Part shown: in pieces, positions 11,739-56,879 of the stretch
Position numbering within the stretch: the first letter of the stretch is position 1
Layout of the letters: each line of letters opens with the position of its first letter
DNA from: Treponema sp.
Lineage (GTDB): Bacteria; Spirochaetota; Spirochaetia; Treponematales; Breznakiellaceae
Direction: 5' to 3'
Length of the DNA: 64,000 nt
NCBI GenBank assembly: GCA_009777535.1
Contig: WRLP01000001.1
Location: forward strand, 47,631 to 111,630
Position numbers and translations under genes: made by a program
Notes under the pieces: generated by a model
Told to the model about the DNA's origin: nothing
The model's database searches: none
What the model saw: only the letters and a program-made list of their open reading frames with translations

Positions 11739-11766
11739 AATATGAAAACAAACAAAGGAAGAGACT

Positions 11767-14526: not shown

Positions 14527-14535
14527 TGTTAGGCG

Positions 14536-15687: not shown

Positions 15688-15696
15688 TATTACCTG

Positions 15697-32991: not shown

Positions 32992-33050
32992 ACTAATGCA
33001 TATCTCATCTGCGCGCCATATATATTCATATAACTTTTTGGAGGTTGTGC

Positions 33051-39420: not shown

Positions 39421-40991
39421 ATCCCGTGATGAATAACTGCTCTGTTAGAGATACGGATATAAAAATCATAATGGTTTTTATTCTGTTGTTTATTCCTTTA
39501 TATTTCAGCTCCTGCGATATACTAAGATCTTCTCCTTTCGAGGTTTTAAGATGGAGCCCCGGTGAGCATTATCATGCTGATCCGCACGAGATTGCGGTGT
39601 CACTGAGTTTTTCCCACGAGCCTGACCGACAGAGTGTTGAGCGTCATTTTTCCATGAGCGAAGATAACGGCAGTGTAAAAGGGGTTTTTCTCTGGGAAGG
39701 AAAAAAGATGCTATTTATTCCACTGGCGCCGCTGGAAAAAAACCGTGATTTTATTTTAACCCTTTCTGCCGAGGCAAAAAGCACCGCGGGCCTGTCCATG
39801 GATAAGGGCTTTACCGGCTGTTTCACTACCCGGCCTGCATCGCTTCGCCCGTTTTTGGTTTCATTTTATCCCGGAATGAACGAAGAAATAGATGATACAA
39901 GGGTAGAGGTGAACCTGATTTTTTCAGTTCCTGTTTCTCACGGCTCGTTATACGACAATGTTTCATTTGTTCCGGCGAAAAACGGCTCATGGCGGCTGGA
40001 AGACGGCGGGCATAGGGCAATTTTTACTCCTTTTGAACCCTGGGCACAGCATAGGCGCCATGAGCTGCATGTTTCTGCATCATTGGCTGAAATTTACGGA
40101 ATGTCCATGGGAAAGGATTTTATAAGCACATTTGTTACCGGTACCGACCACGAGGATCCTGTTCTTGTTGAAGCATGGCGCCTAACCAGCGGCAATTCTT
40201 CCGTACTTCTGGAAGCCGGAACTGCCGGCATCCTGGGCGGCAGCGGAACGTTGATCGAAAACAGGGGCTGGGAAAAGAACGATCGGCTTCTTTTAAAGTT
40301 CTCAAAGCCGGTAGACAGCCTCTCGGTGAACAGCTGCCTGAGCGCAGAAGGGGCGGCGGGACTTGTCATGGATACAGCGCCGCTTTTCAATAAGGATTTT
40401 ATATTCAGCTTCGAAACAATACCGGTTTATGAAAGCCGCTTTACGATCAGACTTAAAGAGGGAGTTAAGGATTTTGCCGGCAATGAGAGCGAGGATGAAT
40501 ACGTCTTTAGAATTTATGCAAATGGCAGCCAGTCAATGCCGCCGGTACTTGCGGGGATAAGGCTTCCAATGGCACCGGGCAGTTTAACAGATCCTGATCT
40601 TGTAAGTTTTGATGTTAATTCACTTTTTGAACACCTTCCCGTGGCAGATGGAGTAAATAATTTTCCTTCCGGCGAAGAGGTCAGAACCTGGATTGAGTTT
40701 TATTTTTTTACGGCGCCGGGAGCTTCCATTGATCAGTTTTCATTCATGGAATTGTTCCGCATCGACACAAGCAACAATGTTCTTGCCTTTTCACCTCGCC
40801 AGGTAAAGACCGGCGGTTTTTCTGTTTCTCAGCCGGCAGGTGAATGGCAGAATCTTGTGCGCATTGAACTAACGGGAATTCTTGTCAATTCAACGAATTT
40901 CGGAGTTGTTAACTTCCATATCCAATCCGGATTAAAAGACAGTTATGGAAATAAAAATGAAAAAACATTTATTGTTTCCCTTTTAAAGTAG
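39417..40991 (+). CDS. Ig-like repeat lipoprotein (paralogous architecture to the preceding gene)
   Basis: It has lipobox FSSC and modules such as FILTLSAEAKSTAGLSM and FTIRLKEGVKDFAGNES. Its start overlaps the upstream stop (ATGA). Confidence 0.65.
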   Translation: MNPVMNNCSVRDTDIKIIMVFILLFIPLYFSSCDILRSSPFEVLRWSPGEHYHADPHEIAVSLSFSHEPDRQSVERHFSMSEDNGSVKGVFLWEGKKMLFIPLAPLEKNRDFILTLSAEAKSTAGLSMDKGFTGCFTTRPASLRPFLVSFYPGMNEEIDDTRVEVNLIFSVPVSHGSLYDNVSFVPAKNGSWRLEDGGHRAIFTPFEPWAQHRRHELHVSASLAEIYGMSMGKDFISTFVTGTDHEDPVLVEAWRLTSGNSSVLLEAGTAGILGGSGTLIENRGWEKNDRLLLKFSKPVDSLSVNSCLSAEGAAGLVMDTAPLFNKDFIFSFETIPVYESRFTIRLKEGVKDFAGNESEDEYVFRIYANGSQSMPPVLAGIRLPMAPGSLTDPDLVSFDVNSLFEHLPVADGVNNFPSGEEVRTWIEFYFFTAPGASIDQFSFMELFRIDTSNNVLAFSPRQVKTGGFSVSQPAGEWQNLVRIELTGILVNSTNFGVVNFHIQSGLKDSYGNKNEKTFIVSLLK

Positions 40992-40998
40992 GAAAATT

Positions 40999-43900
40999 AT
41001 GCATGGATTGATCAACCTTTTTGTCCGCCGTCCGGTAACAGTAATCATGATTTTATCTGCTCTGCTTATAGCTGCAGGTTTTTCTGTTTCAAAACTTCCT
41101 CTGGATAAATTGCCCGAATTTTCTGTTCCACGGGTAAACGTGGAAACAGTTTATTCCGGCATGGCGGCAGGCGACATTAGAGCCCTGGTAACCATTCCCG
41201 TGGAAGATGCACTGTCTCCCGTTAAGGGACTGCAGCGGATACGCAGTATTTCGCGTGATAATTATTCCCTTATCAGCATGGACTTCCGCTGGGGAACGGA
41301 TCCAATGACTGCGGCCGTCCTTGTTCGTGAGGCAATCGACGCTGTTTATCCGGGACTTCCGGAAGGTGTTCACAAGCCAATTGTAACTTCCGCAGAAGCA
41401 AACAATGAACCCCATGCCATTGTGTCGGTATATTCGCGTAACAATGGCGGAAGTTTTGCAAGGAACCTTGCTGAATATGAACTAAGGACAAGGCTTAGAA
41501 GAATAGACGGGGCCTCCTCGGTAATTCTTGTCGGAGGTGAAGTTGCCGAGGAACAGCTTCAGCTTGATGTTTCCAGACTTGCCGCTCTGGGCTTAAGTCC
41601 GCAGGAGTTTACCAGGCTGCTTTCTCAGGAAGCTGCCGACATTCCTGCCGGAACTGCACGCGAAGGAAAAACCGAATTGATAGTTGTCAGTTCCGGCAGG
41701 CCGGATTCGGTTTCTGAACTTCGTTCAATGATCCTCCCGCTGGGCGCCGGGACATTAAAGGCAGGTGATGCGGGTTCGTTCATAACTGCCGCCGGCCGCA
41801 GAGACAGTATTTTTGTGCATAACGGCATCGAGGCGGCCGCTCTGGAAATATACCGCAGACCCGGCGCAGATCCGGTTCGGCTTTCCAGAGAAATACAAAA
41901 AGTTGTTAAGGAAAGTAACTCGCTTTTTTCCAGAGACGCTGATGTTCAACTGGTTTACGATTCTACACCTTCCCTGACAGCCGGCATTAAAGGCCTTTTA
42001 ATCTCTGCCGGCCTGGGTGCGGCGGCGGTTATATTTGTATTGATTATCTTTATTCGCCGTGTTCTGTACAGTCTGCTTGTGGCTTTTTCTATTCCCGTGT
42101 CCGCCGCCGCCGGTATTTGCGTTCTTTTTATTCTTGGGAAGTCTCTCAACGGCATGAGCCTGGGGGGCCTTGCCCTTGGCATTGGGCTTGTTTCCGATGT
42201 CAGCGTAATTGTATTGGACTTGCTCTGCAGCTCTTTTGATAATAAAAACAATAGGCCCGAACCGCAGGAAATAAGCAAAATAACCGCTACAATTGCCGGA
42301 TCCAGTTTTGCATCTACCATGACTACAATTCTGGTTTTTGCGCCGATTATTTTTCTTCCCGGTCCATTGGGCAGCCTGTTCGGTGATATTGCAATTACCC
42401 TTGTTGTGTCGGTTTTTACAGGCTGGCTTTATGCCCAGTTCTGTCTGCCCTCACTGTACCGTATGTTTTTTAAATATGGAATGACAGCTAATATTCAAAA
42501 ACCAATCAAATTAAAATATCTATCAATGCTTAACAATATCAATCCTGAAAAAAAATACCGCAGTATCCTTATTCACTCTTTGCGCCGGCCGGTAAAAATT
42601 TTTACTGTTGCTGCCCTAGCCAGCGCCATTGGCGCCCTGATACTTTTGCTGCAGCCTGTAACATTTATCAGGGCGGACGAAGCAGAAGAAGTGCGGATTT
42701 CCGCTGTTTTCCCTTCGGGAACTCTGCCGGAAGCGATGAGTAACGCAGGAACGGAAATATCCCGTATTGTATCAGGGCTGCCAATGGTGGAAACAGTTTT
42801 CGGAAGGGCCGGCGCGGAAAATGAAGATGTCGGCCGCAGGGCGGAAATTGACTATAGGAGGGAGGAGCTTATTTTAAGCTGTACTTTGAAGAGAGGAGCC
42901 AGGCCGGCAGAAGCCGTAACACAGATAAATTCAGCGCTCGAACAGTTTTTTGATCGTGAATTCAGCTATTATGTGCATCTGCCCAGGGATAGAACTGAAG
43001 TCTTATTGGGATTGTCTTCACATAACAGTTTTGTTGTCAGCGGAAAAGACAGGGAAGAGGCGCTGGATCGCTGTGCGCTTGTGGAAAATTTTTTTAACAC
43101 TGCGGCGGTTCCTGCGTTAATAAAGTCCGGCGGCCAAAGACCCGAGCTTAGAATGTATCCAAACAGGGAAGCGGCAGCCTATCTTGCCCTGCCCGCCATT
43201 AACATAGCGGAAACCCTTTATACCCTGAATGAAGGAGTCGTGGCTGTTACTCTGGAGATTGAAGGCAGGCCGCTTGATGTGCGTGTAACAGGGGCAGGTG
43301 CGGACAACTCGGCCGAAGAGATAAGTTTTCTGGAAAATATTCCGCTGAAAACACCGGAGGGAAAAACAGTCTTTCTCGGATCGGTAGGCAGGGTAGAGCG
43401 CAGGGAAACCGAGGCAGCCCTTGCCCGCCTTGATCGCAGCGACGTTGTCTATATGGATATTGCCGCAGCGGCAGGAAAAACAGCCGTAAAGTTAATAAAG
43501 GAAATTACCTCCCGCCATTCATGGTTTTCCGGAGCTGATGAATCGGTTTTCAGCCTTTACCGTAACTCACTGATTGTTTTTGTGCTTTTGGTACTTATCC
43601 TTCTTTACATGGCGATGGGCGCCCAGTTTGAATCTTTCTTACTGCCGGTAATTCTTATGATGAGTATTCCGCTTTCCCTTTCCGGCGCGGGCCCCGCTCT
43701 TTTAATATCCGGCGCCGGAGTTGATTCCGGCGCTGTTATGGGGCTGGCCGCGCTTTTCGGCCTGGTAGTGAATAACAGCCTGGTTCTTTTTGAAATAAGC
43801 GAAGAAAAAATAAACCAGGGCGTTCCGGTATCCGGCGCCGTATACACCGGCGCCTGTGAAAGACTGCGCGCGGTACTGATTACGGCGTTAACCACGGTTT

Positions 43901-44082
43901 TCGCATTGTTGCCGCTGGTCATAAGGCCGCTTATGAATTCACAGAAATCAATGGCGGCGGCAATGATGGGAGGGCTTGCCGCATCGACTATCCTTAGTCT
44001 TTTTGTTATTCCGCCGGTTTTAATACGGTTTTTTAAATGGAGATTCCGTAAGGGCGAAAATTTCCCAGGAGGGAGCAGATGA
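40999..44082 (+). CDS. RND-superfamily efflux transporter permease (AcrB-like), divergent
   Basis: 1,027 aa with the 12-TM, two-large-loop pattern. N-terminus FVRRPVTVIMI...; TM4 region GIGLVSDVSVIV. Confidence 0.85.
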   Translation: MHGLINLFVRRPVTVIMILSALLIAAGFSVSKLPLDKLPEFSVPRVNVETVYSGMAAGDIRALVTIPVEDALSPVKGLQRIRSISRDNYSLISMDFRWGTDPMTAAVLVREAIDAVYPGLPEGVHKPIVTSAEANNEPHAIVSVYSRNNGGSFARNLAEYELRTRLRRIDGASSVILVGGEVAEEQLQLDVSRLAALGLSPQEFTRLLSQEAADIPAGTAREGKTELIVVSSGRPDSVSELRSMILPLGAGTLKAGDAGSFITAAGRRDSIFVHNGIEAAALEIYRRPGADPVRLSREIQKVVKESNSLFSRDADVQLVYDSTPSLTAGIKGLLISAGLGAAAVIFVLIIFIRRVLYSLLVAFSIPVSAAAGICVLFILGKSLNGMSLGGLALGIGLVSDVSVIVLDLLCSSFDNKNNRPEPQEISKITATIAGSSFASTMTTILVFAPIIFLPGPLGSLFGDIAITLVVSVFTGWLYAQFCLPSLYRMFFKYGMTANIQKPIKLKYLSMLNNINPEKKYRSILIHSLRRPVKIFTVAALASAIGALILLLQPVTFIRADEAEEVRISAVFPSGTLPEAMSNAGTEISRIVSGLPMVETVFGRAGAENEDVGRRAEIDYRREELILSCTLKRGARPAEAVTQINSALEQFFDREFSYYVHLPRDRTEVLLGLSSHNSFVVSGKDREEALDRCALVENFFNTAAVPALIKSGGQRPELRMYPNREAAAYLALPAINIAETLYTLNEGVVAVTLEIEGRPLDVRVTGAGADNSAEEISFLENIPLKTPEGKTVFLGSVGRVERRETEAALARLDRSDVVYMDIAAAAGKTAVKLIKEITSRHSWFSGADESVFSLYRNSLIVFVLLVLILLYMAMGAQFESFLLPVILMMSIPLSLSGAGPALLISGAGVDSGAVMGLAALFGLVVNNSLVLFEISEEKINQGVPVSGAVYTGACERLRAVLITALTTVFALLPLVIRPLMNSQKSMAAAMMGGLAASTILSLFVIPPVLIRFFKWRFRKGENFPGGSR

Positions 44083-47000
44083 CGCATTTTTCTTCCTGGC
44101 TTGGCAGAAAAAAAATGAGCCTTTGCATTCTGGCCGGCATTTGTTCCGTATCGTTATGCGTCATTATTGCTTCCGGTGAAAAAACTGATTATAACGCCGG
44201 AAGTTCTTTTGTTGTAAAAATAAAACATTACGGGCTTAATGCCGCTGAAATTGAGCGGAGCATCAGCATTCCCCTGGAAGATTCGCTTTCGGCAATTGCC
44301 GGTGTGCAGACTGTTCAGAGTTCCAGCGAAAACAATAATTCCAGGGTTTTTATCCGCTTTGATAAGAGGGGAAGAGGAAGATATGAAGCTGTCCGTGACG
44401 CCGTCCAAAGGGTATATGAATCCCTGCCTTCTTCCGTGCAGCGGCCGGAAATCTTAAGTTCAGGTAATTCCAGAATTCCGGTCTGGTCTGCCGCAGTGCT
44501 ATTTCAGGATGGCGATGATGACAGCAATGCTGCCAGGGTAATGGAAAGGATAATAAAGCCAAGACTCGAAAGCATTGAAGGAGCAGGCGAGGTTTTTGTA
44601 TCGGGAACAGGCCTAAAGGAAATAGAAATAATTCTGGATCAGGAAAAACTTGCCGCGCTGGGGCTTGACCAGGCCGCTGTAGCCGCTGCGCTGGCTATGA
44701 ACGATGCGCTGTTTTCGGGCGGAGTCCTTGTGCGGCAGGGCAGGGAAATAATCGTTACAGTAGACGGGCGTTATGATACATTTGCATCCTTTGACGGCCT
44801 TGCCAAAGCGCTGATTCCGCTGGGAGGGGGAAGGGCGGCGGCGCTTTCAGAAATTGCCATGATAGCCGAGCAGGAAAGAATGCCGGAAACTCTTTCCAGG
44901 TTAAATGGAAAAAAGGCCGTTGTAATTTCCATTATGGGAAACCATGACGCGGACTTGCGCAGGCTTTCTAAAAACATAAAAAAAGAACTTGCCGCCCTGC
45001 CCACCGGCGTAGAATTCATTGTTCTTTCCGATTTGGGAGCCGAGGAAGCGGCTGCGTTCCGTTCGGTCTTTAACGCCGCACTGTTGGGCGCATTTCTTGT
45101 AGCCATGATCAGTTTTTTCCTTAACAGAAAAAAAGCGGGTAACACGGCTCTTGCGTTTAACCATGCCGGTTTTTTCTGCGCCCTGATCGTTCCGTCAATT
45201 TGCCTTATATCAACTGCCCTGTTGTCAATCTGCGGCTTTCCTGCAAATCGTTTGGTACTGGCGGGAATAGCAGCCGGAGTCGGCACGGCAGTTGATTCGG
45301 TAATACTCTGCACCGAAAAACTGCGCAAGTGCAGGTCTTACCGGGATGCGTCCGGCTGTCTTGCTGAACTGCGCTCTCCACTGATCGCAGGGGCAATGAC
45401 CACTGTAATCGTTCTGCTTCCGCTATCGGCAATTGACGGAACAGGAGTAATCGCTTTTGCCATTGCGGCGGTTACACTAACGGCCCTTGTAATTAGTCTT
45501 ACTCTTCTGCCCCCATTGCTTCTCTGGGGCATGGGCTCCGCTAAATCAAGTTACTGCATATCAAAGCAAAATACCCGGTTGTCCGGCCGTGTTTACCGGC
45601 GCTTTTTAAGAATTTTATGCAGATTTATAGCTGCAGAAATCAGGCTGTGCGTGCGTTATCCGATACGGGTATTGCTTTCTGCATTTTTGCTTGCCGCTTC
45701 GGCGGTAGTTATGTTTTTCGTTAAAGGTGTGGATACCGGCAGCTATGGTTCCGGAAACTCGGTCTATGCCCAGGTTGAATTTGAAGGAGGCCTGCTTGCC
45801 GAAGAAGCGGATCGCATACTTGCGGATTACGGTGGTAGACTGGCAGCCCAAAAAGGAATTAAAAATGTTGAAACCAGCGCAAGGACAGGCTCGGGATCAG
45901 TTTTAATATCCTTCGATCCCAGGATCTTAAAGGCGCATGATGTCCGTGAACTCGCCGGAAGTATTCCCGTTTTTGACGGCTTTATATTTTTTCCCGAAAA
46001 TTCCGCAAAAGACCGGCACTGGGAGATCAGGGTTTCAGGGGACGAGGAGCAAAAATGCAGAGAGCTTGCAGAAGAACTCGCGCACCTCAGCACCGGCCTA
46101 AAGCTGATTCGGGGGCAGGTTCTTAACTTTAAGAGCGGAAGTAAAAAGCTGCTTCTTTCGCCCGATCGGGAAATGTTAGCGGCGGCGGGGATTGTTTTTT
46201 CCAGTGCTGCCGGCAATCTTCGCATGGGCGTGCATGGGCCTGTTGTATATAAAAGGGTGAATTCTGAAGGTGAAGTTGATGTCCGCCTTAGAACAGGCGG
46301 CTGCGATTATTTTGATAAAATGGCCGGCGTTATGCGCATGCAAACAAGAGATGATGCTCTTGGCTCTCTTGTTTTTAATGCAAACAGCGAAACCAATGCC
46401 GCATATCAGATTAAAACACTGATGAAAACAAGGGAAGAAGTTGAAAGCGCGAGCATTAGGAGGGTCGACCGACGCCGGACAGCTTCCATTACCGTAACCA
46501 CATCTCCAATGGATCCCAGGCGTGTAAAACAATCTCTTGGCGATCTTTATAAATACCTGGAACTGCCACCCGGATACTCTATTGTATTCGACCAGCAGGC
46601 AATCAGCCAGGCAGAGGCATTGACAGGAACTGTCCTTTCACTTGTGTTGGCTGTTGTTTTTTGCTATATGGTTATTGCAGCAATTAACGAATCGTTTGTT
46701 GTTCCGCTAATCGTGCTTTCCGCGATTCCGCCCTCGCTTGCGGTTCCGGGCATCTGCATTGTTCTGACAGGCGGAGCCTTCAGTCTTCCAGCGGCCTGCG
46801 CCTTTATTGCCGTCAGCGGCATGACAGTTAACGCCGCGGTGCTTTGCATCGACGGAATAAGGTCGGTGGTTTGCCAGGACAATTCTGAAGTCTGCGTGGG
46901 TTTTTATCGCGTTATTCGCCAGAAAATGCCCGCCCTGTTGGCTACAACCGGTACAACAATTGCCGGAGCGCTGCCCTTCCTGTTCCTTAGTGAAGATTCC

Positions 47001-47180
47001 AACACACTGATAAGAACCCTTTCGTTGGTGGGGGCGCTTGGTGTAGCAAGCTCATGTTTTTGCGCAATTAGCATTGTTCCCGCGTTTTCTTTGATGCTAA
47101 GGAAATACTTAAAACCTGTTTTACAAAAAAATATTCCGCTTGTGCGGAAGAAAAAATTATTTTCGGAATGTTTAATATGA
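44079..47180 (+). CDS. RND-superfamily efflux transporter permease (AcrB-like), second paralogue
   Basis: 1,033 aa with AcrB-like topology. TM4 region GVGTAVDSVILCTE. Its start overlaps the upstream stop (ATGA). Confidence 0.85.
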   Translation: MTHFSSWLGRKKMSLCILAGICSVSLCVIIASGEKTDYNAGSSFVVKIKHYGLNAAEIERSISIPLEDSLSAIAGVQTVQSSSENNNSRVFIRFDKRGRGRYEAVRDAVQRVYESLPSSVQRPEILSSGNSRIPVWSAAVLFQDGDDDSNAARVMERIIKPRLESIEGAGEVFVSGTGLKEIEIILDQEKLAALGLDQAAVAAALAMNDALFSGGVLVRQGREIIVTVDGRYDTFASFDGLAKALIPLGGGRAAALSEIAMIAEQERMPETLSRLNGKKAVVISIMGNHDADLRRLSKNIKKELAALPTGVEFIVLSDLGAEEAAAFRSVFNAALLGAFLVAMISFFLNRKKAGNTALAFNHAGFFCALIVPSICLISTALLSICGFPANRLVLAGIAAGVGTAVDSVILCTEKLRKCRSYRDASGCLAELRSPLIAGAMTTVIVLLPLSAIDGTGVIAFAIAAVTLTALVISLTLLPPLLLWGMGSAKSSYCISKQNTRLSGRVYRRFLRILCRFIAAEIRLCVRYPIRVLLSAFLLAASAVVMFFVKGVDTGSYGSGNSVYAQVEFEGGLLAEEADRILADYGGRLAAQKGIKNVETSARTGSGSVLISFDPRILKAHDVRELAGSIPVFDGFIFFPENSAKDRHWEIRVSGDEEQKCRELAEELAHLSTGLKLIRGQVLNFKSGSKKLLLSPDREMLAAAGIVFSSAAGNLRMGVHGPVVYKRVNSEGEVDVRLRTGGCDYFDKMAGVMRMQTRDDALGSLVFNANSETNAAYQIKTLMKTREEVESASIRRVDRRRTASITVTTSPMDPRRVKQSLGDLYKYLELPPGYSIVFDQQAISQAEALTGTVLSLVLAVVFCYMVIAAINESFVVPLIVLSAIPPSLAVPGICIVLTGGAFSLPAACAFIAVSGMTVNAAVLCIDGIRSVVCQDNSEVCVGFYRVIRQKMPALLATTGTTIAGALPFLFLSEDSNTLIRTLSLVGALGVASSCFCAISIVPAFSLMLRKYLKPVLQKNIPLVRKKKLFSECLI

Positions 47181-50100
47181 AAAATTTCTATTTCGATAAA
47201 ATTACAGCCGCCGTTTTGACGGTTATTTTGGCAGTTGGTATGCTTCCGGTAAATGGGTTTACCCAGGCATTTCCGGCTCCTTCGCCGTCTTCAAAAACTT
47301 CAGATTCCCTTTATGATGTCCGGGGTTTTGACAGAACGGTCTTTGATTATCACTTTAGCAGAGCCGACAGGGAACTGAGTCCGGATCGCTGGCTTGCGGA
47401 AGCGAAGCAGGGTATTAATATGGCAATTTGCGCCTGGGAATTATTTGCTTCGTCTTTATATGACAATCCTTTTCTTCTCCAGGGGGCAAGGGCAAAAATA
47501 GAAAAGTGGAGCGGCGAAGAACTCGAAGAGCGTTTTTCTGAATGGCTCGCCGGCCGTTTTTTCGGCGAAGCTGTCGAAAATGCCATGACCGGAATATCAG
47601 GACTGTTAGGCGATACTCAAAAACAGTACACATGGCATTTGGATACGGCTGGAAATATTATTCTGGAGGATAAGACAGGAGATCCCCTTGTAATACGGCC
47701 ACACGAGAGTGCGTTTATATTTGATTTGGAAAAATGGAAAAACGATGCGGCGAACCATATTAATTCGGAAAGTGCTTTTTTTAATGACGCGTTAACCGCT
47801 CTTTATCCGGAACTGCTGGCTTATATGCCGGCTGAACTGCGCCAAAGCATGAATTCGGTGATTCTTGGAACCGGCTCAACCTTAAAAAATTTTGTTAAGA
47901 GGGAATTTGAAAACATTGCCGCAAGGGAAGAGCGCCTGTTTATCAGCCGGCGGACAAGAGATGTATGGAGTCTGCGCAATAAAAGCGATGAGGAGGCGGC
48001 AAGGATCGTTACCGAAAGGCTGATAAGTGAAGCTGAAGAAGTATGTATAAGGGGAATTAATGATTTAAACACAAAAATTGAGGAAGCTTCCGCCGGCACC
48101 GGGGATCTGGCTTTTTTGGGCGAAGAATGGCTGCGAATGTATCAGGAACAGTTTGACAGGGGGCTGCGGGCCTGGGAAGATGCGGAAGAAAGATTTTTTA
48201 TCAGGAGAATCGAGTGGGAGCAGGAGTCGCTCAGACTTTTCTCCGAGGGAGAAGATGTCTGGCTTGCGGCTTATCATCAGTTGGAGGAAGAGCGCAGGAA
48301 GTGGGAATTAAAAGCAAAAGAGTTATTCGAGTCCGGTGAAGCGTTGTTCATGAATATTTCAGAAAATCTGGAGAAGGCGATTACTGCCGCAAGGGCCGAA
48401 TTTGAATATAACATGGCAATGCGGATTGGAAGCGGGGCCGCAAAAGCCAAGGCCCTGGTCGATATGTACCTGACCAGCGGCTCTGCGGCTTTGACTATCA
48501 GGGATAACATTCTGTTTTGGCAGAAACAGATTGCGTACGGTGATCCGCCGGATCCATCGGAGGCCCGTTTTTCCCAATGGCTTGCCGGTGAAAGACTGAA
48601 TTTTTGGATAAAGGCAGAAACCAATGAAAAAAGGTGGATTGGATATGACGATTATGTTGAACAGCTGGAAGCATTAAATTATATTATAATAACAACAAGG
48701 GATCCGGCGGAAAAAGCTTTCGCTACAGTAAACTACAATAATTTGTATAACAGATTTATTGCTGCCCAAATATACTTAATTCAAATTCAGGACATTATTG
48801 AAGATATCGTTGCCGGAAAAACAGTAACAGATGCGGAATTTGAATTTGCAGAGGGTAATGGTTCATTGGGCCTTTTTGATCGCGCCCGTTTTAATAATAT
48901 TTCGGAAATAACCAAATTATATGAGTTATATCTTTCGTACATGGCCAGAGCAACAGAAACAAGAGAAATAATTATTGAAGATTTCAGTGAGTTAATGGGA
49001 ACCGGAGCGCTGAAAGATATTATTTCGCCTAATGCATCAAGCGAAGATTTTTGTCTCGATGAGTACCAGCTGGAGCTAATCAGGGCAAAAGCGCTCGTGC
49101 TGTACTGGGAACGAAAGACATACATTGCAGAAGCGGTATCCGCCTATGCGAAGGATCTGAGCGCCGGAAGAGTTACAGAGGCGGAAGGAATACAGGCCTG
49201 GGAAAACGCCAAAACCGCCTACAACGAGTCACTGGAGAGGTATGAGACAGAGTTAAACCTGTTAGCCGAAGCCGGCGAAGACATGAAAAACATGCAAAAA
49301 AAGCTGGACAGTTTAAACGCTGAGTTAAAGTATGCTGAAGAAAAGTTAAATAAAATGAATTCCGATTATTCCGCTATTATTGCCGCTTCCATTACCGATC
49401 GTGAGGATCAGCTGCGGCTGGAATTAGATGCAAAGTATAATTTTCTTGTTACGGAATACAGACTGCTGTCTCCAAATGGCGGCGCTTCAGTCTATAGTGC
49501 AGCCCTGAATTATGGCATGAATATGGAGAGAGCCTGGCGGATTGAAAATGCCCAAATTGCCCTTTTTGATCTTGTTAATGGAAAGAACGAAGGTGTCGGC
49601 GTTGATGCATTATCTTTATATGAACTTAAAGAAAGAGTTCTTGCCGGACTTGAATCAGAGGTTAGCTTAAGAATTCGTCTTGCCGGTATTAATTTATTTT
49701 CTGATACATTTGACGGCTATCTAAGGTCCCCGAATTCTTCTTACAGTAGTGCGGATTGGTATTCTGGTGTGAAAGGTATTGCCCACACTTATGAATTGGC
49801 AAGGTCCCTGTATGGTGAAAAATTAGGGGAGCAGCTTATTGCCGATTATAAAAACAGTTATTCTATCCTGATAGAAACCCGGCTTGCCCTTGAGATTGAT
49901 GCCCTTGATTTTTTTCTTTATGGAGATTCAGAGCCGGAAAGCATTTCGGAGCTTTTGTCTGAAAGCTGTCTTGTTGATGATATTACCGCCGCAGAGCTTC
50001 TTGAAGTGTTAATAGCTTTTCGAGACAGGCTCAACCACGGAGAAGGGTTTTATTCTTATAACGACGATGAAAATGAAATTATTTACCGGTTCATCTCAGG

Positions 50101-53100
50101 AGAATCTTCCTTTACCGGAACGGAAAATATTGTTGCTGAATTAATAAATGAATTTAATTTCTCCCTTGGCTTGCTGGAATTGTACAGTGAATACGCTTTG
50201 TTTGGTTCATTTACAGCGTGGGAACTGTGGCAGAACACGCTTGTGTCGCTGGAAAGGTTTTTTTCCGAATATGGCCTGGCACTGAATGGAGAATACCTGC
50301 CTGACGCCGATAGAATTTGCGCAAAAATATTCGGGCAATCCGGGAATTTTCTCAATAATGCAGCGGAATTCCTGCGGAATTTTGAACAGTGTTTTCTTTT
50401 TGTACCGGAATGGCTGGAATATGAACTGGATATCTGGAAAACATATTTAATCGATTATATTGCAGCTTATGCGGTGTATTTGGGAAGGCAGCCTTTGGAA
50501 CATTCATCATATTTTGAATCTGAATTGGATAATATGGAGGGCCGGTACAATTTATTTTACGAGAACATCAATTCTATGCGATATATCGATGATTTGTCGA
50601 TGGATAAAATAGAATACGATTATTTAACACTTAAAAACGAAAATATATTGCTCGCTTATAAATATCAGATTGCCGTGGTCTTGGAAAAAATTTCCAAAGA
50701 ATCGGATAACGCAGGTTATGAGAAACATTGGCGCCGGTTCTTATCTGGTTTTTATATTAACAGTATTGATTCCGCGGCTTCTGGTGTTTCTTCATGGAAT
50801 GAGGGTGTAATGCTTGATGCCCTGGAAAAGGCAGTATTTTCTACCGGCCGAATGAATATCGCCTTGGCCATGTACTCTCAAATAAATAATGACATAGTAA
50901 CGGCCAATTCAGAAATACTTTACGGTTTGTATCATAACGAAAATTTAAAGATAGAGCACGGTTTTTCGAGCCTGGATTTTCAGAGAACTGAACTTGCCCG
51001 TCTTGGCAGGGCTTATGATTATTCAAAAATACCATCTATCGATTTAACGGTTGAGGCGGAAAAACATTATGAGGCGCTTGGAATCCAGGAAAATATTTTT
51101 TACGCGCTATGGGATGATTATCTGGCAGAGGCTGAAGAATTTGTTAAAATTGGCAGCCTGTATGACAATCAATACGGCAGACTAAAGTATGCTTACAATA
51201 ATACGGAAAGGCTGCGCTTTGAATATGAAAAACAGGATGCAATTCGAAGATGGGCAAGCACAGCATATCTAGATGCGGGTAATATCGATCTTCTGAACAG
51301 TAAAGATAGGCTTGCCAGAGCGCAAATGGTATTAACTGTTTTGTCAGACATATATGACAATGAAGAACGGCGTCAATATGATAATCCTGAATATCAGGCG
51401 CTGTACCTTAATTACGAACAGTGGTTTAACAATAAGCTGGTAATTGCAAAAACCTATGACGCTCTTCAGTCGTTGATAGGGGAAGAAGCAATAAAAAATA
51501 ATGATATTTACTCACAGTATAATTCAGTGCTTGCAACTCTCGGGCAATGGACATTTCAACACGACTATGACGGGTATAATTCTTCGGCGGACCAATCGCA
51601 GTGGTCAGTTAAAGATATTATTACCGTAAAAAACGGTCAATTGGCATTTTCCAGAGACGAGATGACTCTAACAGGAGTAAATGATTCCAAATCAAAACTT
51701 TTAAATGATTATTTTACATCATCTTATGTTGTCTCCGGCGAAAAGCACATTGTAAGTCAATTTGAAGAATCTGTCAGAAGTTTAAGCCAGAGAATGACCG
51801 GCTATTTCATGAATGCGGAAAAATTTAATCAATGGGGGCTTGCAAGGGATTATCTGATATCTTCCATGATTGCCGCAAACGGAAATTTAAAGTTTTTGTC
51901 AGGTTATTATACAGGAGCCGGAGAACTGGCCGATGGCGGCAGCTTAGGTAGACTGTCTTTCAAATATTCACCGGTTGATAGAACCGAAACAGTCAGGTCT
52001 GCCGCTCATAACAACAGTTCATTTTATAACTCCCTAAGAAACCCGCAAGCCATGCTGAAAAATGCCTGGGAAGGTTTAAGCGAACAGGAAAAAGCCGATC
52101 TTGAATTTTATATTATTCTGACATTGTCCGGCAGGTTCAACAATTATGCAGGCGGGTTTTCGATGATACATACGCTTGATGTTTATCAGAAGGGATACAA
52201 TTTTGTAAGGGAATATTATAAAAAAGCAGATAAAATATGTAATGATCCATTGAAGCTCGGCGGTCTTGGGATATGGAAAGAAATGAGGGATATAAACAAG
52301 ACAACAATGAATCGAATAAATACTGTTCTTAATGAAACAAAGAAAATTGTAGAAACATGGAAACTTGGATTAGCTGAAAATTTAAGGCAAATATCATTGT
52401 ATGCTTCTGAATATACCAGGTCCTGCGCAGAACTGGACGAAATAGAAAAGACACAACCGGATGGACAAAGGATTGTATGGCAGGATATCGAAGATTCTGT
52501 TTCCTGTTTAAAAACGATTTCTGATTATGAAATTACAATTCTGGAAAGTTGCTGGAAAAAAATGCTTGTGGAAACCGGCAGGGCATATACCAGTGTCCCG
52601 GCTGCAATTGCCGATCTGCTTGGCTGGGCAGGGAATACCGAGGTATTAAGCAGGCAGGCTCTGGAATATTTTTGGATTGCTGATGAACAATCACGCAAGA
52701 AGGCGGAAATTGATTTTCGCCTGGCGCAGGAAGCTTATTTTTCCGATGAAATAAGCATAGATACTCTAGAGGCTGCCGCAGAAAATGCTTACGGAAAAAA
52801 CTCCGCAGCATGGAAAAATCATCTTGAAAATTTAGGAAACACAATGATAAGGGATCTGGGCAGTTATTTAAATTCCCACTCAAGTTATTATACGGAGTTT
52901 CAGGCTCTTGGGGAAGATTTGGTTGCCGTAGTTGCAAGGACGCTCCACAGTCGTTATGCGGCGGAACTTGCCGGCAGAGATAACGAATGGAATCTGCAGC
53001 GCATGGACATAGCTGAAAAATATATTGAGTGGCAGATGCTTGCGAAACGGCTTGTGGAAAATGGCAGAAATGACTGGGATAACGGCGTTCAGAAAATAAC

Positions 53101-56100
53101 AGAGGCTCATAGGCAATGGAATGAAAATTTCGTAAACGAATACAACCGGGTAAGCGCTGAGTGGACGGAAACTTATCTGGCCGGGCTGGAAGATAAAAAG
53201 AAATGGCTGGAAATGGTTGGCAATGCGGCAGATAACGCGGCATCCTCCGCCTTTCTGTCTCTTGTCGGCGCTGAGGCGGAACGAATGGCGAGATCAATAG
53301 AAACCAGGGAACCGTTTGGTCTTCGTGATATTGAAGTTGATGCGGATGATCTTCTGGCGGAACTGCTGAACAGTTCCGGAATCCGCAATATGACTAGTGC
53401 ATTTGCTTCAATTAACGCAATTTCCGAAACCGGATCCATCGCGGTCAGGAGGGGTATTGGCGGCTTATCGTCATGGGACGCATCTCTTGCCAGGGCGGCT
53501 GCCGGAGATTTGGCCCGAAAAACCAATTCACAGCTGGCTGCCCAGGAATCCGCAAAACTTGCTTTAGTTACCCGTAATATAGCCGAAGAGGCTGTTAAAA
53601 ACCTTGTCTCCAGCGTGGATTCCGCAAACAATGATTTTCGTGAAAGCATGGACGATACTTTTATCTTTAAGGGGCTTTGGAGAAGGAGCGGAAATAATTA
53701 TGTGAAAGATATAATAATGGGTTCTACCCTTTTTGAACCTGTAATCACAGAAAGAAAAACCATTGCAGGATATTCTGATTACCGGATGGATCCGGTAGAA
53801 CTCAAGGTAAACCTTGATGAAAAATACCTGGCAAGCCTGGACACTCTGGCTCTCAGGAGCATAATGGAAAGTGTCTATCAGGAACTGGAATCCATTGCAA
53901 AAGAAATATTCGGAAATAATTCTGGCCCCGAAAAAATAATCAAACAGGGAATAATTTACAAACGTTCCGGCAATACCAGGGAATCAATGTATGAGGAAGT
54001 ATTGATTGATCTAGAGGAGCGCGATCTTTTTCCGGGAAAATTCGGCGCTCATATCGGATATAGACCGGCAGTAAAGCCCGGTGATCTGAATGGAAATAAC
54101 AAAAATACAATGTTCCATGATCAGGGCAGCGGAGAGCTGGGGCGCCTAATGACCCAGTTCATATATTGGGCAGTAATCGACGGGAAGGGAAGCGCCGAAA
54201 TTTACACGGCCACATGGGAAAAACGCATGTGGGACGACAGCGGCAGCTCATTTGAGGCGCCCAGCCTTCGTACAGCGCTGCAAATAGCCGGTACGGTTGC
54301 GGCCGCAGTTGTTTCGATAGTGGCGGCGCCGTTCACCGCGGGGGCAAGTACTCTGGGCCTGGTTGGATTAATGGCTCTTAATGTCGGCATTACTTCCACC
54401 AGCGAACTGGTTTTCAATGCTCTTGATGTGGGTTATGGCCATAAGACATTTGGTGAAGCGGGTTTTAGTTTTGGAAAGACAACTTTGATAAATACAGTCA
54501 GCAGCGTTGGTTCGGGGGTTTTTGGCGGTGTAGGAAACGCCGGCTTTATTGCCGGCCAGGGGCTTACAAGCGCGGCTGTTGGCACGGCAGCAGGTTCTGC
54601 TGCGGCTACAGTGGCTGTTCAGACTACAATGGCCGGTGTGCAGACCTTTACCACCGGATTGCTAACCAATGCCATAGGCGGAATTAATTACAGCCGTGAA
54701 GGAGGCTGGAGCTACTCGGTGCAGAGCGACAGCGGAAAAGGTCTGCTGATAAACACACTGTCTTCCATGGGGGGAGCCTTTACTACCGGGGCATTCCAGG
54801 CTATTAACACCGGAACCGTTGGAGAAAAAGTTGTGGGCTTTTCCGGATTAAACAGGGAAGACATTGCAAGGCTGAACGGCCTGGCCGGTTCCCTTGCCGG
54901 CGAAGGAATTAATTTTGCCTTTGGAGGTGATTTTACATTAAATTTACTGAATATAGGCTTATTTACAGACAGCAAGTATAACAGCGGGCTGCTGGAATTG
55001 CATATTGGCCGTGACGGTTCCCCGACAATGAACCTTGGAACCGGCGGTGCGAATATCAGCCCTGAAAATATATTAGCGGCCTTTAGGGGCGCGCAGGTCT
55101 GGAATATGAACAACCAAATTGGCAGGTATGGGAGGGATAATGATTTTGACGCATTGATTGCATTAAGGGCGCAATACGGATTTGGCGACTCAACGCAGGT
55201 GGAACAACTCCGCAACATTCTGAACAAAATAGACGAACTATGGACTGAAAGCGGTCAGGGGTATGATGCAAAAACAGAAATGATTGACGGTGTGCGTGTT
55301 GTAAGGCTCGGCAATTATCAGGCTGGAATGAGTGTGGAAGAACAAATGCGCCTTGCCGCGATTCTTGGGCATGAGGCGTACAGAGATGGCATAATTTCAC
55401 CGGATGATTTCGCAGAACTCAAGGATGCATCAATCGCAAGAATACTAATGGGAGACCGGATAAATCAGGACTATCAGTGGTTTTATGCCTATAATGTTGA
55501 TTTTGGTTTCGAGAGTTTCCTGTATGGTATGGCGGAATTATCAGGGTATTTTGAACTGCTTGATAATTATCTGCAGTACACCTACAAAAATGAGGAAGAC
55601 TTCTTTTGGCAATGGGCAAGTACGGGAGGCAATTTCCAGTCTATGGATGAACTAAAAAGCATACCGCTCCTGAACTCAATGTCTGTGGCTAAAGTAGATG
55701 AAATTAACGACGAAAGGTTAGATACTGCATTTGATAAATATAAAGAAGACCTGGCAAAAGAAGAAGACTATACCGGTGATATTGCGGATTTTGTATCAGA
55801 AAAAGGGACAGATGATGTATTAAAAGAAGCTTTTAAAAATGATGCGGGGCTTTTGAGTAAATATGAATATGATCCTATACAAATAGAGTCGATTTATTCA
55901 GATGGCTGCATGTTCATGTCGACAAAATACGGGCTGGAGGCAATTACCGGGAAACAGTTTGATACACTCTGGTTCAATGAGTATATAAAAAATAATAATC
56001 TATACGATGGTGAATCCGATCTTTCAAAATATTTAATGGCCGAAATTATGAACCGCCTTGCAGGAAACCAATATAATGTAACTCTTGTCCAAACGGGTCT

Positions 56101-56446
56101 TCCGGATGCGGCCAGGTTATTTGAATACGGACAGGCAGGTGATATGTATCTTGCCCATCTGCGGATAAAAGAAAACGGGACTGGCGGGGGTTATCATTCT
56201 GTGATGGTTTCCGGCATCGAATACACTTACGATATTATGGGAAATGTTACTGGTATAAGCGCTGTCAATGTAGCGAATCCCTGGGGCAAGGGCAGCTTTA
56301 CCGGAAAAACCAGTTACACAATGGATCAAATTGCCCGCTGGGATATTTTCAGGGTAACCCAGCAAGGACCGTTAACCACGGTAATAAGAGTTCCAAGTTT
56401 TAGGGACAAATTACAGTCTGGGTATTATTATACATTACCTTTTTAG
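47168..56446 (+). CDS. Giant secreted protein (3,092 aa): signal peptide, ~2,300-aa helical region, Gly-rich hydrophobic module, C-terminal papain-like Cys/His domain
   Basis: A single uninterrupted ORF. The alternative start at 47177 forms ATGA with the RND stop. N-terminal signal peptide: KITAAVLTVILAVGMLPVNGFTQA. Confidence 0.85.
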   Translation: MFNMKNFYFDKITAAVLTVILAVGMLPVNGFTQAFPAPSPSSKTSDSLYDVRGFDRTVFDYHFSRADRELSPDRWLAEAKQGINMAICAWELFASSLYDNPFLLQGARAKIEKWSGEELEERFSEWLAGRFFGEAVENAMTGISGLLGDTQKQYTWHLDTAGNIILEDKTGDPLVIRPHESAFIFDLEKWKNDAANHINSESAFFNDALTALYPELLAYMPAELRQSMNSVILGTGSTLKNFVKREFENIAAREERLFISRRTRDVWSLRNKSDEEAARIVTERLISEAEEVCIRGINDLNTKIEEASAGTGDLAFLGEEWLRMYQEQFDRGLRAWEDAEERFFIRRIEWEQESLRLFSEGEDVWLAAYHQLEEERRKWELKAKELFESGEALFMNISENLEKAITAARAEFEYNMAMRIGSGAAKAKALVDMYLTSGSAALTIRDNILFWQKQIAYGDPPDPSEARFSQWLAGERLNFWIKAETNEKRWIGYDDYVEQLEALNYIIITTRDPAEKAFATVNYNNLYNRFIAAQIYLIQIQDIIEDIVAGKTVTDAEFEFAEGNGSLGLFDRARFNNISEITKLYELYLSYMARATETREIIIEDFSELMGTGALKDIISPNASSEDFCLDEYQLELIRAKALVLYWERKTYIAEAVSAYAKDLSAGRVTEAEGIQAWENAKTAYNESLERYETELNLLAEAGEDMKNMQKKLDSLNAELKYAEEKLNKMNSDYSAIIAASITDREDQLRLELDAKYNFLVTEYRLLSPNGGASVYSAALNYGMNMERAWRIENAQIALFDLVNGKNEGVGVDALSLYELKERVLAGLESEVSLRIRLAGINLFSDTFDGYLRSPNSSYSSADWYSGVKGIAHTYELARSLYGEKLGEQLIADYKNSYSILIETRLALEIDALDFFLYGDSEPESISELLSESCLVDDITAAELLEVLIAFRDRLNHGEGFYSYNDDENEIIYRFISGESSFTGTENIVAELINEFNFSLGLLELYSEYALFGSFTAWELWQNTLVSLERFFSEYGLALNGEYLPDADRICAKIFGQSGNFLNNAAEFLRNFEQCFLFVPEWLEYELDIWKTYLIDYIAAYAVYLGRQPLEHSSYFESELDNMEGRYNLFYENINSMRYIDDLSMDKIEYDYLTLKNENILLAYKYQIAVVLEKISKESDNAGYEKHWRRFLSGFYINSIDSAASGVSSWNEGVMLDALEKAVFSTGRMNIALAMYSQINNDIVTANSEILYGLYHNENLKIEHGFSSLDFQRTELARLGRAYDYSKIPSIDLTVEAEKHYEALGIQENIFYALWDDYLAEAEEFVKIGSLYDNQYGRLKYAYNNTERLRFEYEKQDAIRRWASTAYLDAGNIDLLNSKDRLARAQMVLTVLSDIYDNEERRQYDNPEYQALYLNYEQWFNNKLVIAKTYDALQSLIGEEAIKNNDIYSQYNSVLATLGQWTFQHDYDGYNSSADQSQWSVKDIITVKNGQLAFSRDEMTLTGVNDSKSKLLNDYFTSSYVVSGEKHIVSQFEESVRSLSQRMTGYFMNAEKFNQWGLARDYLISSMIAANGNLKFLSGYYTGAGELADGGSLGRLSFKYSPVDRTETVRSAAHNNSSFYNSLRNPQAMLKNAWEGLSEQEKADLEFYIILTLSGRFNNYAGGFSMIHTLDVYQKGYNFVREYYKKADKICNDPLKLGGLGIWKEMRDINKTTMNRINTVLNETKKIVETWKLGLAENLRQISLYASEYTRSCAELDEIEKTQPDGQRIVWQDIEDSVSCLKTISDYEITILESCWKKMLVETGRAYTSVPAAIADLLGWAGNTEVLSRQALEYFWIADEQSRKKAEIDFRLAQEAYFSDEISIDTLEAAAENAYGKNSAAWKNHLENLGNTMIRDLGSYLNSHSSYYTEFQALGEDLVAVVARTLHSRYAAELAGRDNEWNLQRMDIAEKYIEWQMLAKRLVENGRNDWDNGVQKITEAHRQWNENFVNEYNRVSAEWTETYLAGLEDKKKWLEMVGNAADNAASSAFLSLVGAEAERMARSIETREPFGLRDIEVDADDLLAELLNSSGIRNMTSAFASINAISETGSIAVRRGIGGLSSWDASLARAAAGDLARKTNSQLAAQESAKLALVTRNIAEEAVKNLVSSVDSANNDFRESMDDTFIFKGLWRRSGNNYVKDIIMGSTLFEPVITERKTIAGYSDYRMDPVELKVNLDEKYLASLDTLALRSIMESVYQELESIAKEIFGNNSGPEKIIKQGIIYKRSGNTRESMYEEVLIDLEERDLFPGKFGAHIGYRPAVKPGDLNGNNKNTMFHDQGSGELGRLMTQFIYWAVIDGKGSAEIYTATWEKRMWDDSGSSFEAPSLRTALQIAGTVAAAVVSIVAAPFTAGASTLGLVGLMALNVGITSTSELVFNALDVGYGHKTFGEAGFSFGKTTLINTVSSVGSGVFGGVGNAGFIAGQGLTSAAVGTAAGSAAATVAVQTTMAGVQTFTTGLLTNAIGGINYSREGGWSYSVQSDSGKGLLINTLSSMGGAFTTGAFQAINTGTVGEKVVGFSGLNREDIARLNGLAGSLAGEGINFAFGGDFTLNLLNIGLFTDSKYNSGLLELHIGRDGSPTMNLGTGGANISPENILAAFRGAQVWNMNNQIGRYGRDNDFDALIALRAQYGFGDSTQVEQLRNILNKIDELWTESGQGYDAKTEMIDGVRVVRLGNYQAGMSVEEQMRLAAILGHEAYRDGIISPDDFAELKDASIARILMGDRINQDYQWFYAYNVDFGFESFLYGMAELSGYFELLDNYLQYTYKNEEDFFWQWASTGGNFQSMDELKSIPLLNSMSVAKVDEINDERLDTAFDKYKEDLAKEEDYTGDIADFVSEKGTDDVLKEAFKNDAGLLSKYEYDPIQIESIYSDGCMFMSTKYGLEAITGKQFDTLWFNEYIKNNNLYDGESDLSKYLMAEIMNRLAGNQYNVTLVQTGLPDAARLFEYGQAGDMYLAHLRIKENGTGGGYHSVMVSGIEYTYDIMGNVTGISAVNVANPWGKGSFTGKTSYTMDQIARWDIFRVTQQGPLTTVIRVPSFRDKLQSGYYYTLPF
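54270..55060 (+). other. Gly/Ala/Thr-rich hydrophobic (glycine-zipper-like, possibly membrane-inserting) module of the giant protein
   Basis: IAGTVAAAVVSIVAAPFTAGASTLGLVGLMALNVGI...VGSGVFGGVGNAGFIAGQGLTSAAVGTAAGSAAATVAV... Confidence 0.5.
55860..56443 (+). other. C-terminal papain-fold (C39-like / NlpC-P60-like) cysteine peptidase-type domain of the giant protein
   Basis: The candidate nucleophile is Cys in SDGCMFMS (codon 55907-55909). The candidate His is in GGGYHSVMVSG (56195-56197), followed by VANPWG (Asn/Asp position). Confidence 0.5.
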
Positions 56447-56456: not shown

Positions 56457-56879
56457 ATGAAAAAATTAATATTTATGGTATTCGGTGTTTTTGTTCTATT
56501 TGGACATCTGGAGGCTGAAAGAATAAGGGAGAGGGGCGTCATTATCGACTATGAAATATATGATAACGGCAAACATATTTTTCGAACTAGCATTTGTGAT
56601 GATGATGGCAGCGGCTCTATTAGCTATTATTATTCATTGTATATGCTTAAATCCGCAAGCCCTGATTTTATCAATATTTTTTATGAAAGATACGGCAGTC
56701 CCGGCGAAGATTTTATCCATAATTTTTCTTTCCAGCGTATTTCAACATTTAGTTATGATAAATTTTTGGATGAAGTCAGAGCATTCCTGATAAAAGTTGG
56801 AGAAAGCGAGGAAAAAACCGAGGTTATTGTGTCTCTGCTCTCAGAGTACCGTAGTATTTTATTGTACAATATGGACTAA
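56457..56879 (+). CDS. Small secreted protein (140 aa), candidate cognate partner/immunity protein of the giant protein C-terminal domain
   Basis: An AGGAGG RBS is present and the start is 10 nt after the giant-gene stop. It has a signal peptide (MKKLIFMVFGVFVLFGHLEA) and is visibly AT-rich. Confidence 0.6.
   Translation: MKKLIFMVFGVFVLFGHLEAERIRERGVIIDYEIYDNGKHIFRTSICDDDGSGSISYYYSLYMLKSASPDFINIFYERYGSPGEDFIHNFSFQRISTFSYDKFLDEVRAFLIKVGESEEKTEVIVSLLSEYRSILLYNMD

Follow-up and report, generated by a model that had tools for sequence, protein, structure and literature searches.

Here we describe a giant protein of Treponema that keeps a conserved body and exchanges its C-terminal end. It is encoded on the forward strand (47177-56446) of a 64,000-nucleotide stretch of contig WRLP01000001.1 (assembly GCA_009777535.1), hereafter the window. 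The first ~2,740-2,810 amino acids (aa) are common to all homologues, and the end is exchanged after a junction formed by an [H/Y]EAYRDG motif and a DYW-type motif. Judged from sequence comparison, the ends fall into at least 10 unrelated classes and their swapping is recent and frequent. The gene immediately downstream changes with the end, and the genes upstream, which include a complete transporter set of the resistance-nodulation-division (RND) type, belong to the same system by their conserved order. In our estimate the chances are slightly better than even that the giant is the carrier of a polymorphic peptidoglycan-degrading (cell-wall hydrolase) toxin handled by a dedicated RND-type envelope machine. 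An initial annotation of the window, made from the sequence alone, had seen polymorphic toxin logic in the layout of the protein, an idea now supported by the swapped ends, the conserved body and the co-varying downstream gene; none of the three outcomes it had named as refuting (a uniform C-terminus, a hydrophobic module predicted to be soluble beta structure, an unexceptional base composition) was borne out. The obligate pairing with an atypical RND operon is, in our view, a more interesting finding than those of that annotation.

A conserved carrier with interchangeable ends

The giant and the gene that follows it comprise these parts:

47177-56446 (+): giant protein; 3,089 aa if read from the likely start and 3,092 aa if read from 47168
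47177-47269 (+): signal peptide or signal anchor (MKNFYFDK-ITAAVLTVILAVGMLPV-NGFTQA), Kyte-Doolittle peak 1.96
47270-54262 (+): conserved non-repetitive body of ~2,330 aa with three indel-prone stretches, from the conservation profile and invariant columns
54263-55087 (+): Gly/Ala/Thr/Ser-rich hydrophobic module, about six 25-aa amphipathic helices and then a small beta unit, from composition, hydropathy and AlphaFold2
55088-55609 (+): conserved pre-tail domain that contains both junction motifs, [H/Y]EAYRDG and the DYW type (here YKNEEDFFW), and in which the recombination junctions lie; AlphaFold2 pLDDT mostly 80-94
55610-56443 (+): variable tail of class 0, a helical linker and a predicted papain-like cysteine peptidase domain with Cys at 55907-55909, His at 56195-56197 and Asn at 56276-56278
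56457-56879 (+): 140-aa secreted partner, candidate immunity protein; its ribosome-binding site, AGGAGG, shares bases with the giant's stop codon

A search of a large protein collection returned 223 giant homologues at E<=0.001, with 38-48% identity, of which 119 are listed. The body is aligned in all 119, and beyond query aa ~2762 the share that aligns falls to about half. The variable part begins between the [H/Y]EAYRDG and DYW-type motifs and spans about 280-450 aa; the initial annotation was thus right to expect a C-terminus that differs among homologues, and its figure of ~200 aa was too short. Clustering of the last 170 aa gave 7 end classes among the 119 listed homologues and 11 clusters, two of them doubtful, among 90 unique complete loci, so that the C-terminus is far from uniformly conserved. 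One singleton cluster is probably an artefact, because its end is masked (XXXX) and the "giant" is followed by an overlapping 984-aa open reading frame (ORF).

Several unrelated versions of Peptidase M23 are found among the ends, together with Peptidase M15_4 (above the Pfam cut-off), a weak match to CHAP, a DUF261-like Cys/His domain, the papain-like class 0 to which the window's own end belongs, and two further Cys/His classes with no family assigned. The assigned ends act, or plausibly act, on the cell wall, to judge by their families. The C-terminal region of the window's protein had been described as globular, and its AlphaFold2 model (mean pLDDT 82) agrees. The Cys, His and Asn of class 0 are invariant in 61/61 tails, and in Foldseek searches the last ~180 aa matched staphopain (probability 0.98, E 0.03, TM 0.49) and phage "Peptidase" models (E 6.6e-4). 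No Pfam family covers the class-0 tails, and none recurred over the 19 aligned tails scanned. On the basis of the model and these residues, the window's end is predicted to be a papain-like Cys-His-Asn peptidase that would be catalytically active.

The pre-tail domain that precedes the exchanged part gives weak fold matches to the IrrE, SprT and selecase zincins. Its equivalent of the zincin HExxH zinc-binding motif is not intact and reads [H/Y]-E-A-Y-R: across homologues the first position of [H/Y]EAYRDG is His in 82 and Tyr in 31, and the second HExxH position, which is occupied in 116 sequences, holds Arg in 113 of them and Lys in 3. The domain therefore appears to be a degenerate HExxH module, and we regard it, from these residues, as a probable non-catalytic pre-toxin module.

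Swapping of ends between close relatives

On a neighbour-joining tree of the body (2,156 well-aligned columns), the 7 classes require at least 34 class changes, as compared with a minimum possible of 6 and ~53 for shuffled labels. Unrelated ends are carried by homologues whose bodies are 90% identical (P0033 and P0014) or 87% identical (P0031 and P0027). At the DNA level, the P0033 and P0014 loci align in one uninterrupted stretch of 88.8% identity that starts in the RND genes and stops near giant aa 2604, at the [H/Y]EAYRDG motif; set beside the query-numbered protein junctions, this breakpoint maps to about aa 2734. Past it, the tail and the downstream genes are all unrelated. On the far side of the inserted cassette of tail plus partner, 86 nucleotides from the 5' end of the downstream gene that was displaced have survived (L052 17388-17473 versus L053 14949-15034). 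Among seven swapped pairs, protein similarity stops at query aa 2811-2874, clustering at the DYW-type motif, and in three of the seven it stops exactly after Y-D-S-S-x-D-Y-W.

In this, the 86-nucleotide remnant is similar to displaced modules known from other toxin loci.

The downstream gene changes with the end

When the downstream proteins were grouped by strict clustering, their families mapped almost one-to-one onto the tail classes. Family 0 (24 members) occurs exclusively with papain-like class 0, family 1 (6 members) with the class typed by P0024, and family 2 (6 members) with one M23 class; of the 5 members of family 3, 4 stand with another M23 class and 1 with class 0. The weak co-variation obtained from a looser clustering was false: families had been merged, with at least one link running via SH3-containing neighbour genes, and the stricter clustering resolved them. 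A signal-like N-terminus is present in 61/70 downstream proteins, and 30 of those 61 carry a lipobox-like motif.

The window's own 140-aa partner matched itself alone in 5.8 billion proteins and gave no match to a hidden Markov model of the usual class-0 partner family. Being an ORFan unrelated to that family, it is a candidate immunity gene by position only.

Lipoproteins with an SH3_3 domain, about 340-360 aa long, recur just downstream of several loci (L052 16195-17217; L053 14959-16002; L019). They stand after the partner gene at some loci and in its place at others.

An RND-type operon conserved with the giant

The giant gene of the window is part of an operon of eleven tightly packed or overlapping genes that runs from 33045 to 56879 in the order lipoprotein-TPR-unknown-OMF-MFP-Big_5-Big_5-RND-RND-giant-partner. 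The genes upstream of the giant are:

33045-34040 (+): predicted lipoprotein, 331 aa (…LLIIAC lipobox), first gene of the operon, no Pfam or NCBIfam match
34042-34698 (+): TPR-repeat protein, 218 aa, Pfam TPR_16, TPR_14 and TPR_19; same place in L134
34698-35264 (+): unknown-family protein, 188 aa, no match; a 182-aa ORF stands at the same place in L134
35254-36642 (+): TolC-like outer-membrane factor (OMF), Pfam OEP E 4.7e-29, TolC-family NCBIfam below its curated cut-off; gene also in L134 and L135
36639-38000 (+): periplasmic adaptor (MFP), Pfam HlyD_D23 and HlyD_3, NCBIfam RND_mfp 160.8 bits versus a cut-off of 94.9; upstream of the giant in about 38 loci
37927-39420 (+): Big_5 (bacterial Ig-like) protein a, 497 aa, Pfam Big_5 E 1.2e-15
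39417-40991 (+): Big_5 protein b, 524 aa, Pfam Big_5 E 6.1e-15
40999-44082 (+): RND permease 1, Pfam ACR_tran E 6e-140, NCBIfam 380 bits versus a cut-off of 1250
44079-47180 (+): RND permease 2, divergent, Pfam ACR_tran E 4e-81, NCBIfam 187 bits versus a cut-off of 1250

The tripartite RND set is thus complete, with two ACR_tran genes, a HlyD_D23/RND_mfp adaptor and an OEP channel, and neither permease reaches the NCBIfam cut-off of a curated efflux subfamily. The initial annotation had treated the RND genes as mere flanks of the giant; they are instead its most conserved partners, for in about 84 of 93 unique loci (~90%) the gene that immediately precedes the giant is an RND gene. About 38 genome loci have exactly the order MFP-Big_5-Big_5-RND-RND-giant, including loci whose giants are as little as 30-35% identical, and both Big_5 genes keep their order in all RND-linked loci. 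The whole 11-gene order recurs in L134 plus L003. The 331-aa lipoprotein has 517 homologues (120 listed); several of those listed lie on contigs equal in length to contigs that carry a giant, and locus tags place one of these 9 genes upstream of the giant in another genome. In L135, from a 61%-GC genome with a giant of 23% identity, the block OMF-MFP-Big_5-Big_5-RND-RND is inverted and divergent (1-9892, reverse strand) and still adjacent to the giant (10001-17833, forward strand). The genes beyond the operon vary from locus to locus. Two complete operons with different ends are found in each of two assemblies, WQWU01 (L009, L014) and LIUH01 (L019, L029). As far as gene order and sequence conservation can tell, the RND genes belong to the system of the giant, and together they form a conserved 11-gene operon.

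Some giants stand elsewhere. The orphan giant of L007 lies behind a TetR gene, an MMPL-family RND transporter, a LolA-like gene and an unknown gene (L007 3666-9726), and that of L008 follows dnaE, a YGGT gene and recG. An alternative MMPL/LolA-like context, suggested by L007, was dropped because L008, its closest relative, differs, so the arrangement is not conserved.

The gene call, the N-terminus and the body

The ORF called by the initial annotation, 47168-56446 (+), exists with its 3,092 codons and has two in-frame ATGs at its 5' end. At 47177 an ATG shares bases with the stop of RND permease 2 as ATGA (47177-47180), and the identical database protein, 3,089 aa long, starts there; for these reasons the giant probably begins at 47177, and the earlier start at 47168 would be 9 nucleotides too early. 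The ATGA overlap suggests translational coupling of the giant to RND permease 2. A hydrophobic segment (ORF aa 12-30) followed by TQA|FP gives the protein a signal-like N-terminus, as had been described; an uncleaved anchor fits equally well as the cleavable signal peptide then proposed. This signal-like N-terminus is kept in distant homologues from genomes of 32% to 61% GC.

The description of the body as ~2,300 aa without repeats holds, a BLAST self-comparison of the giant giving nothing off the diagonal at E<=10. Its composition (L 10.4, E 10.0, A 9.5, Y 5.4, W 2.2 and P 1.5%) bears out the residue bias noted earlier, and many Trp, Tyr and Glu columns are invariant in the homologue alignment; the N-terminal 470 aa of the giant are the most conserved. 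Alignment-averaged hydropathy has an alpha-like period in 44% of windows as compared with 16% for a beta-like one, which lends weak support to a helix-like body.

The hydrophobic module

The abrupt compositional switch noticed near the end of the body falls at ORF aa 2366 (nucleotide 54263), where charged residues drop from 26% to 9%; the module (ORF aa 2366-2640) contains G 17, A 12 and T 10%. It is present in all giant homologues, with 59% mean column identity, and within it transmembrane-like hydrophobicity is confined to ORF aa 2373-2402. AlphaFold2 places six helices of ~25 residues before a small beta unit, with a low-confidence pLDDT of 55, and alignment-averaged hydropathy is alpha-periodic in 76% of windows. 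On these two grounds the module is predicted to be helical, at that confidence, and not soluble beta structure. Glycine-zipper or GxxxG-type spacing, by contrast with the earlier proposal, is no more frequent than composition predicts: GxxxG occurs 5 times versus 7.2+/-2.2 in shuffles of the same residues, and [GAS]xxx[GAS] occurs 39 times versus 36.9+/-3.8, so that an enrichment of either pattern was dropped from consideration. Insertion of the module into a membrane is plausible.

Base composition

The central part of the giant gene and the small gene downstream had been judged AT-rich by eye, and computation agrees. The giant has a GC content of 0.432 (0.415 at third codon positions) and the downstream gene 0.345 (0.340), as compared with 0.46-0.54 in the rest of the operon and 0.515-0.534 in the acd/ETF genes. 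The GC of the giant lies below that of its own upstream RND genes in 62/62 loci, by a mean of 7.6 points, and the partner gene is lower still in 42/52. Since the drop is seen in all 62 loci, low GC is a property of the family and not evidence of recent transfer here, and horizontal transfer into the window was rejected as its cause. The pattern fits either fast-turnover cassettes or the amino-acid composition of the protein.

Distribution of the family

At full length the giant gave no significant match in Pfam, NCBIfam or PHROG, sub-threshold noise alone being returned, and profiles of the full-length and tail alignments gave 0 matches to PDB sequences at E<=10. Judged by these searches it is a carrier family without annotation, and a new one. 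Full-text searches of the literature found no account of the giant family or of RND-linked polymorphic toxins.

The named homologues are all from Treponema metagenome-assembled genomes. A scan of species-representative genomes found 46 giant loci. The carriers are termite-gut Treponema and Termitinemataceae, Gracilinema caldarium and the isolate Treponema sp. TIM-1, and one Spirochaetia genome from a biofilm; a few carrying bins labelled Fibrobacteria or Brevinematales are probably mis-binned. When the tail domain was searched against 1.84 billion representatives, members of the giant family were found down to 23-26% identity. Two such distant members, whose loci were fetched, lie in 61%-GC and 32%-GC DNA, and in all four that were inspected the N-terminus is signal-like and the C…H…N-P motifs recur.

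A possible mechanism and the evidence that weighs against it

Beyond gene content, conservation and recombination, we infer a series of steps in which the giant would be a toxin with an export route and activity at membranes. Sec would export the giant to the periplasm, where the partner protein would keep the hydrolase end harmless to the producer. The machine formed by the RND permeases, the adaptor, the TolC-like channel and the Big_5 proteins would then export the giant, or else fix it so that it sits in or spans the outer membrane. Once a neighbouring cell is touched, the amphipathic module would enter the outer membrane of the target and pass the hydrolase into its periplasm, where the cell wall would be cut; kin with the matching partner gene would survive.

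A more far-reaching and distinctly more doubtful proposal is that OMF-MFP-Big_5-Big_5-RND-RND constitutes an unrecognised two-step secretion or delivery machine, in which Sec brings a ~350-kDa toxin to the periplasm and a proton-driven RND pair either threads it through the TolC-like channel or attaches it there, after which the amphipathic module might deliver a swappable cell-wall hydrolase into neighbouring spirochaetes. We know of no earlier case of an RND-type system that handles protein cargo.

A number of observations weigh against a toxin carrier with a dedicated RND machine. The module on which entry into the target would depend has a low-confidence model (pLDDT 55) and glycine-zipper spacing at chance level. 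The partner of the window is an ORFan, so that here no homologues exist to show co-variation; one tail class (tail cluster 5, four loci) is followed by an ETF-beta gene instead of a partner, the giant of L135 by a SelR/MsrB gene that is not partner-like, and 14 loci lack a nearby downstream ORF altogether. Half of the ends are class 0, which makes their diversity modest. The class-0 tail had 74 matches among the 1.84 billion representatives, nearly all of them giants or giant fragments; it is thus hardly found outside the family, unlike classic polymorphic toxin domains, which are common to other delivery systems. (The M23, M15_4 and CHAP end families are widespread.) About six orphan giants have no adjacent RND operon (L007, L008, L037, L043, L045, L047), and P0311 is another. 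The sources consulted on tripartite systems, finally, name protein cargo for ABC-type systems only and none for the RND type, which they list as pumping small molecules.

Alternative explanations

The main rival is a regulated autolysin, in which the giant would be a housekeeping remodeller of its own cell wall, its hydrolase end switched by conformational coupling to the RND complex as FtsEX does with EnvC (LytM/M23) and PcsB (CHAP), and the partner would be an inhibitor or regulator. We think this unlikely. It does explain the types of hydrolase, the assigned ends (M23, M15_4, weak CHAP and papain-like) being cell-wall peptidase families or folds, as well as the tight linkage to an envelope-spanning transporter, and it is consistent with the absence of a partner gene at some loci and with the near-universal occurrence of the system in termite-gut Treponema assemblies. 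It leaves unexplained the strain-level swapping, the fast-turnover partners and the multiple copies: ends and downstream genes are exchanged between proteins of 87-90% identity, which is typical of conflict systems and not of housekeeping enzymes; several complete operons with different ends occur in single assemblies; and the partners, with the lowest GC in the locus, turn over very fast, that of the window being an ORFan. A parallel exists with FtsEX and its partners EnvC, PcsB and RipC, in which a transporter-like complex acts with a helical protein ending in an M23, CHAP or NlpC/P60-type domain (PMC8277102), an arrangement that the helical body and M23, CHAP or papain-like end of the giants recall. 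This pairing of a transporter-like complex with a helical protein that ends in a hydrolase domain is shared; FtsEX, however, is a type VII ABC system of cell division and not an RND transporter, and its partners have 400-500 aa. To our knowledge, neither strain-level cassette swapping nor an immunity-like partner is known for the FtsEX hydrolases.

Less probable still is a Sec-exported bacteriolytic enzyme, serving nutrition or general antagonism, with RND genes that would encode a normal efflux pump and have no more than a promoter in common with it. The RND, MFP and OMF genes do match efflux families, and orphan giants exist away from the pump; the linkage nevertheless holds over 23% to 48% protein identity and through an inversion, both permeases lie far under every curated efflux subfamily cut-off, two Big_5 genes, the TPR gene and two unknown genes always accompany the RND genes, and it is whole operons, not the giant alone, that are duplicated within assemblies. 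A relic of a phage tape-measure protein or of a "polyvalent" protein from a conjugative element is barely credible. The phage T5 protein Pb2 has a long helical region, membrane-inserting segments and a C-terminal wall-degrading metallopeptidase. The giants share this layout, a helical region and hydrophobic segments followed by an M23 or other peptidase, and the tail fold matches phage "Peptidase" models; T5 Pb2 may in this way show mechanistically how an envelope can be crossed. The 64-kb window, though, contains no genes of phage or conjugation, and the neighbours there are transporter and metabolic genes; no PHROG match was obtained, and a tblastn search with the last 815 aa of the giant found nothing among 50,697 phage and 72,556 plasmid records. 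The giants have neither phage context nor a sequence relation to Pb2; their N-terminus is of the Sec type, and their gene keeps a constant position in a chromosomal RND operon.

Relation to known systems

A toxin carrier linked to an RND operon, the reading that we favour, can be compared with the polymorphic toxin systems surveyed by Zhang, de Souza, Anantharaman, Iyer and Aravind in 2012 (PMC3482391). As defined in that survey, such systems have features that the giants share: an N-terminal carrier that is conserved, a junction sharply marked by a motif, enzymatic cassettes that recombine at the C-terminus, a co-varying adjacent partner and several differently armed copies per genome (PMC3482391). 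The giants differ in that they have no known trafficking domain on a carrier that is a new family, in that their assigned ends are cell-wall peptidase or papain-like domains and not nucleases or deaminases, and in that their commonest end is confined to their own family. They are also linked to an RND operon, and the searchable text of the survey holds no mention of RND or efflux (PMC3482391). In agreement with the initial annotation, no usual delivery domain was recognised, Pfam and NCBIfam giving no TPS/FHA, RHS/YD, PAAR/VgrG or LXG/WXG match. Features of CdiA/CdiB or Rhs/YD systems are likewise missing, with no such Pfam match, no repeats and no CdiB-like gene in the locus tables inspected.

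Type VI amidase and peptidase effectors of the Tae/Tai and Tse/Tsi types likewise act as toxins by hydrolysing the cell wall, and adjacent genes encode the periplasmic immunity proteins, secreted or lipoprotein, that neutralise them. The giants differ from these effectors in their Sec-type N-terminus and their length of about 3,000 aa, and no type VI genes were seen near any giant locus inspected. With RND pumps of the MdtABC type, the operon shares an OMF, an MFP and two paralogous RND permeases; it differs in the scores of the permeases (380 and 187 versus 1250 bits) and in the constant presence of two Big_5 genes, a TPR gene, a lipoprotein gene and the giant. A review of tripartite pumps names protein cargo only for ABC-type systems, those of HlyB and of MacB, the latter with Sec-exported STII (PMC8277102). 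In MacAB-TolC, the STII enterotoxin reaches the periplasm by Sec and then leaves via TolC (PMC8277102). This is a precedent for the logic of Sec followed by a tripartite pump proposed for the giant, with the differences that the energiser is an ABC protein of the MacB type and not RND, and that the cargo is at most ~10 kDa as compared with ~350 kDa.

Other features of the window

A gap of low GC (0.40) separates the operon from the sugar ABC transporter genes before it, and in this gap two overlapping ORFs of 72 and 63 aa (32156-32562, reverse strand) look by eye like a HicB/HicA antitoxin-toxin pair. At the corresponding place just upstream of the operon, L134 has a divergent TetR-family regulator (9206-9874, reverse strand). 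A 1,059-aa ORF at 25309-28488 (+) has no Pfam match at E<=0.001.

Implications

If the toxin reading is true, spirochaetes of dense gut communities would have a toxin/immunity system of their own, built on an unannotated carrier family; if the two-step RND machine also proves true, it would be a new type of secretion system. A dedicated and duplicated RND set that always travels with an exported protein of ~3,000 aa makes the handling of protein by RND systems directly testable, and culturable carriers exist in Treponema sp. TIM-1 and Gracilinema caldarium. The family may in addition be a source of natural pairs of cell-wall hydrolases and inhibitors, several of them without a family assignment.

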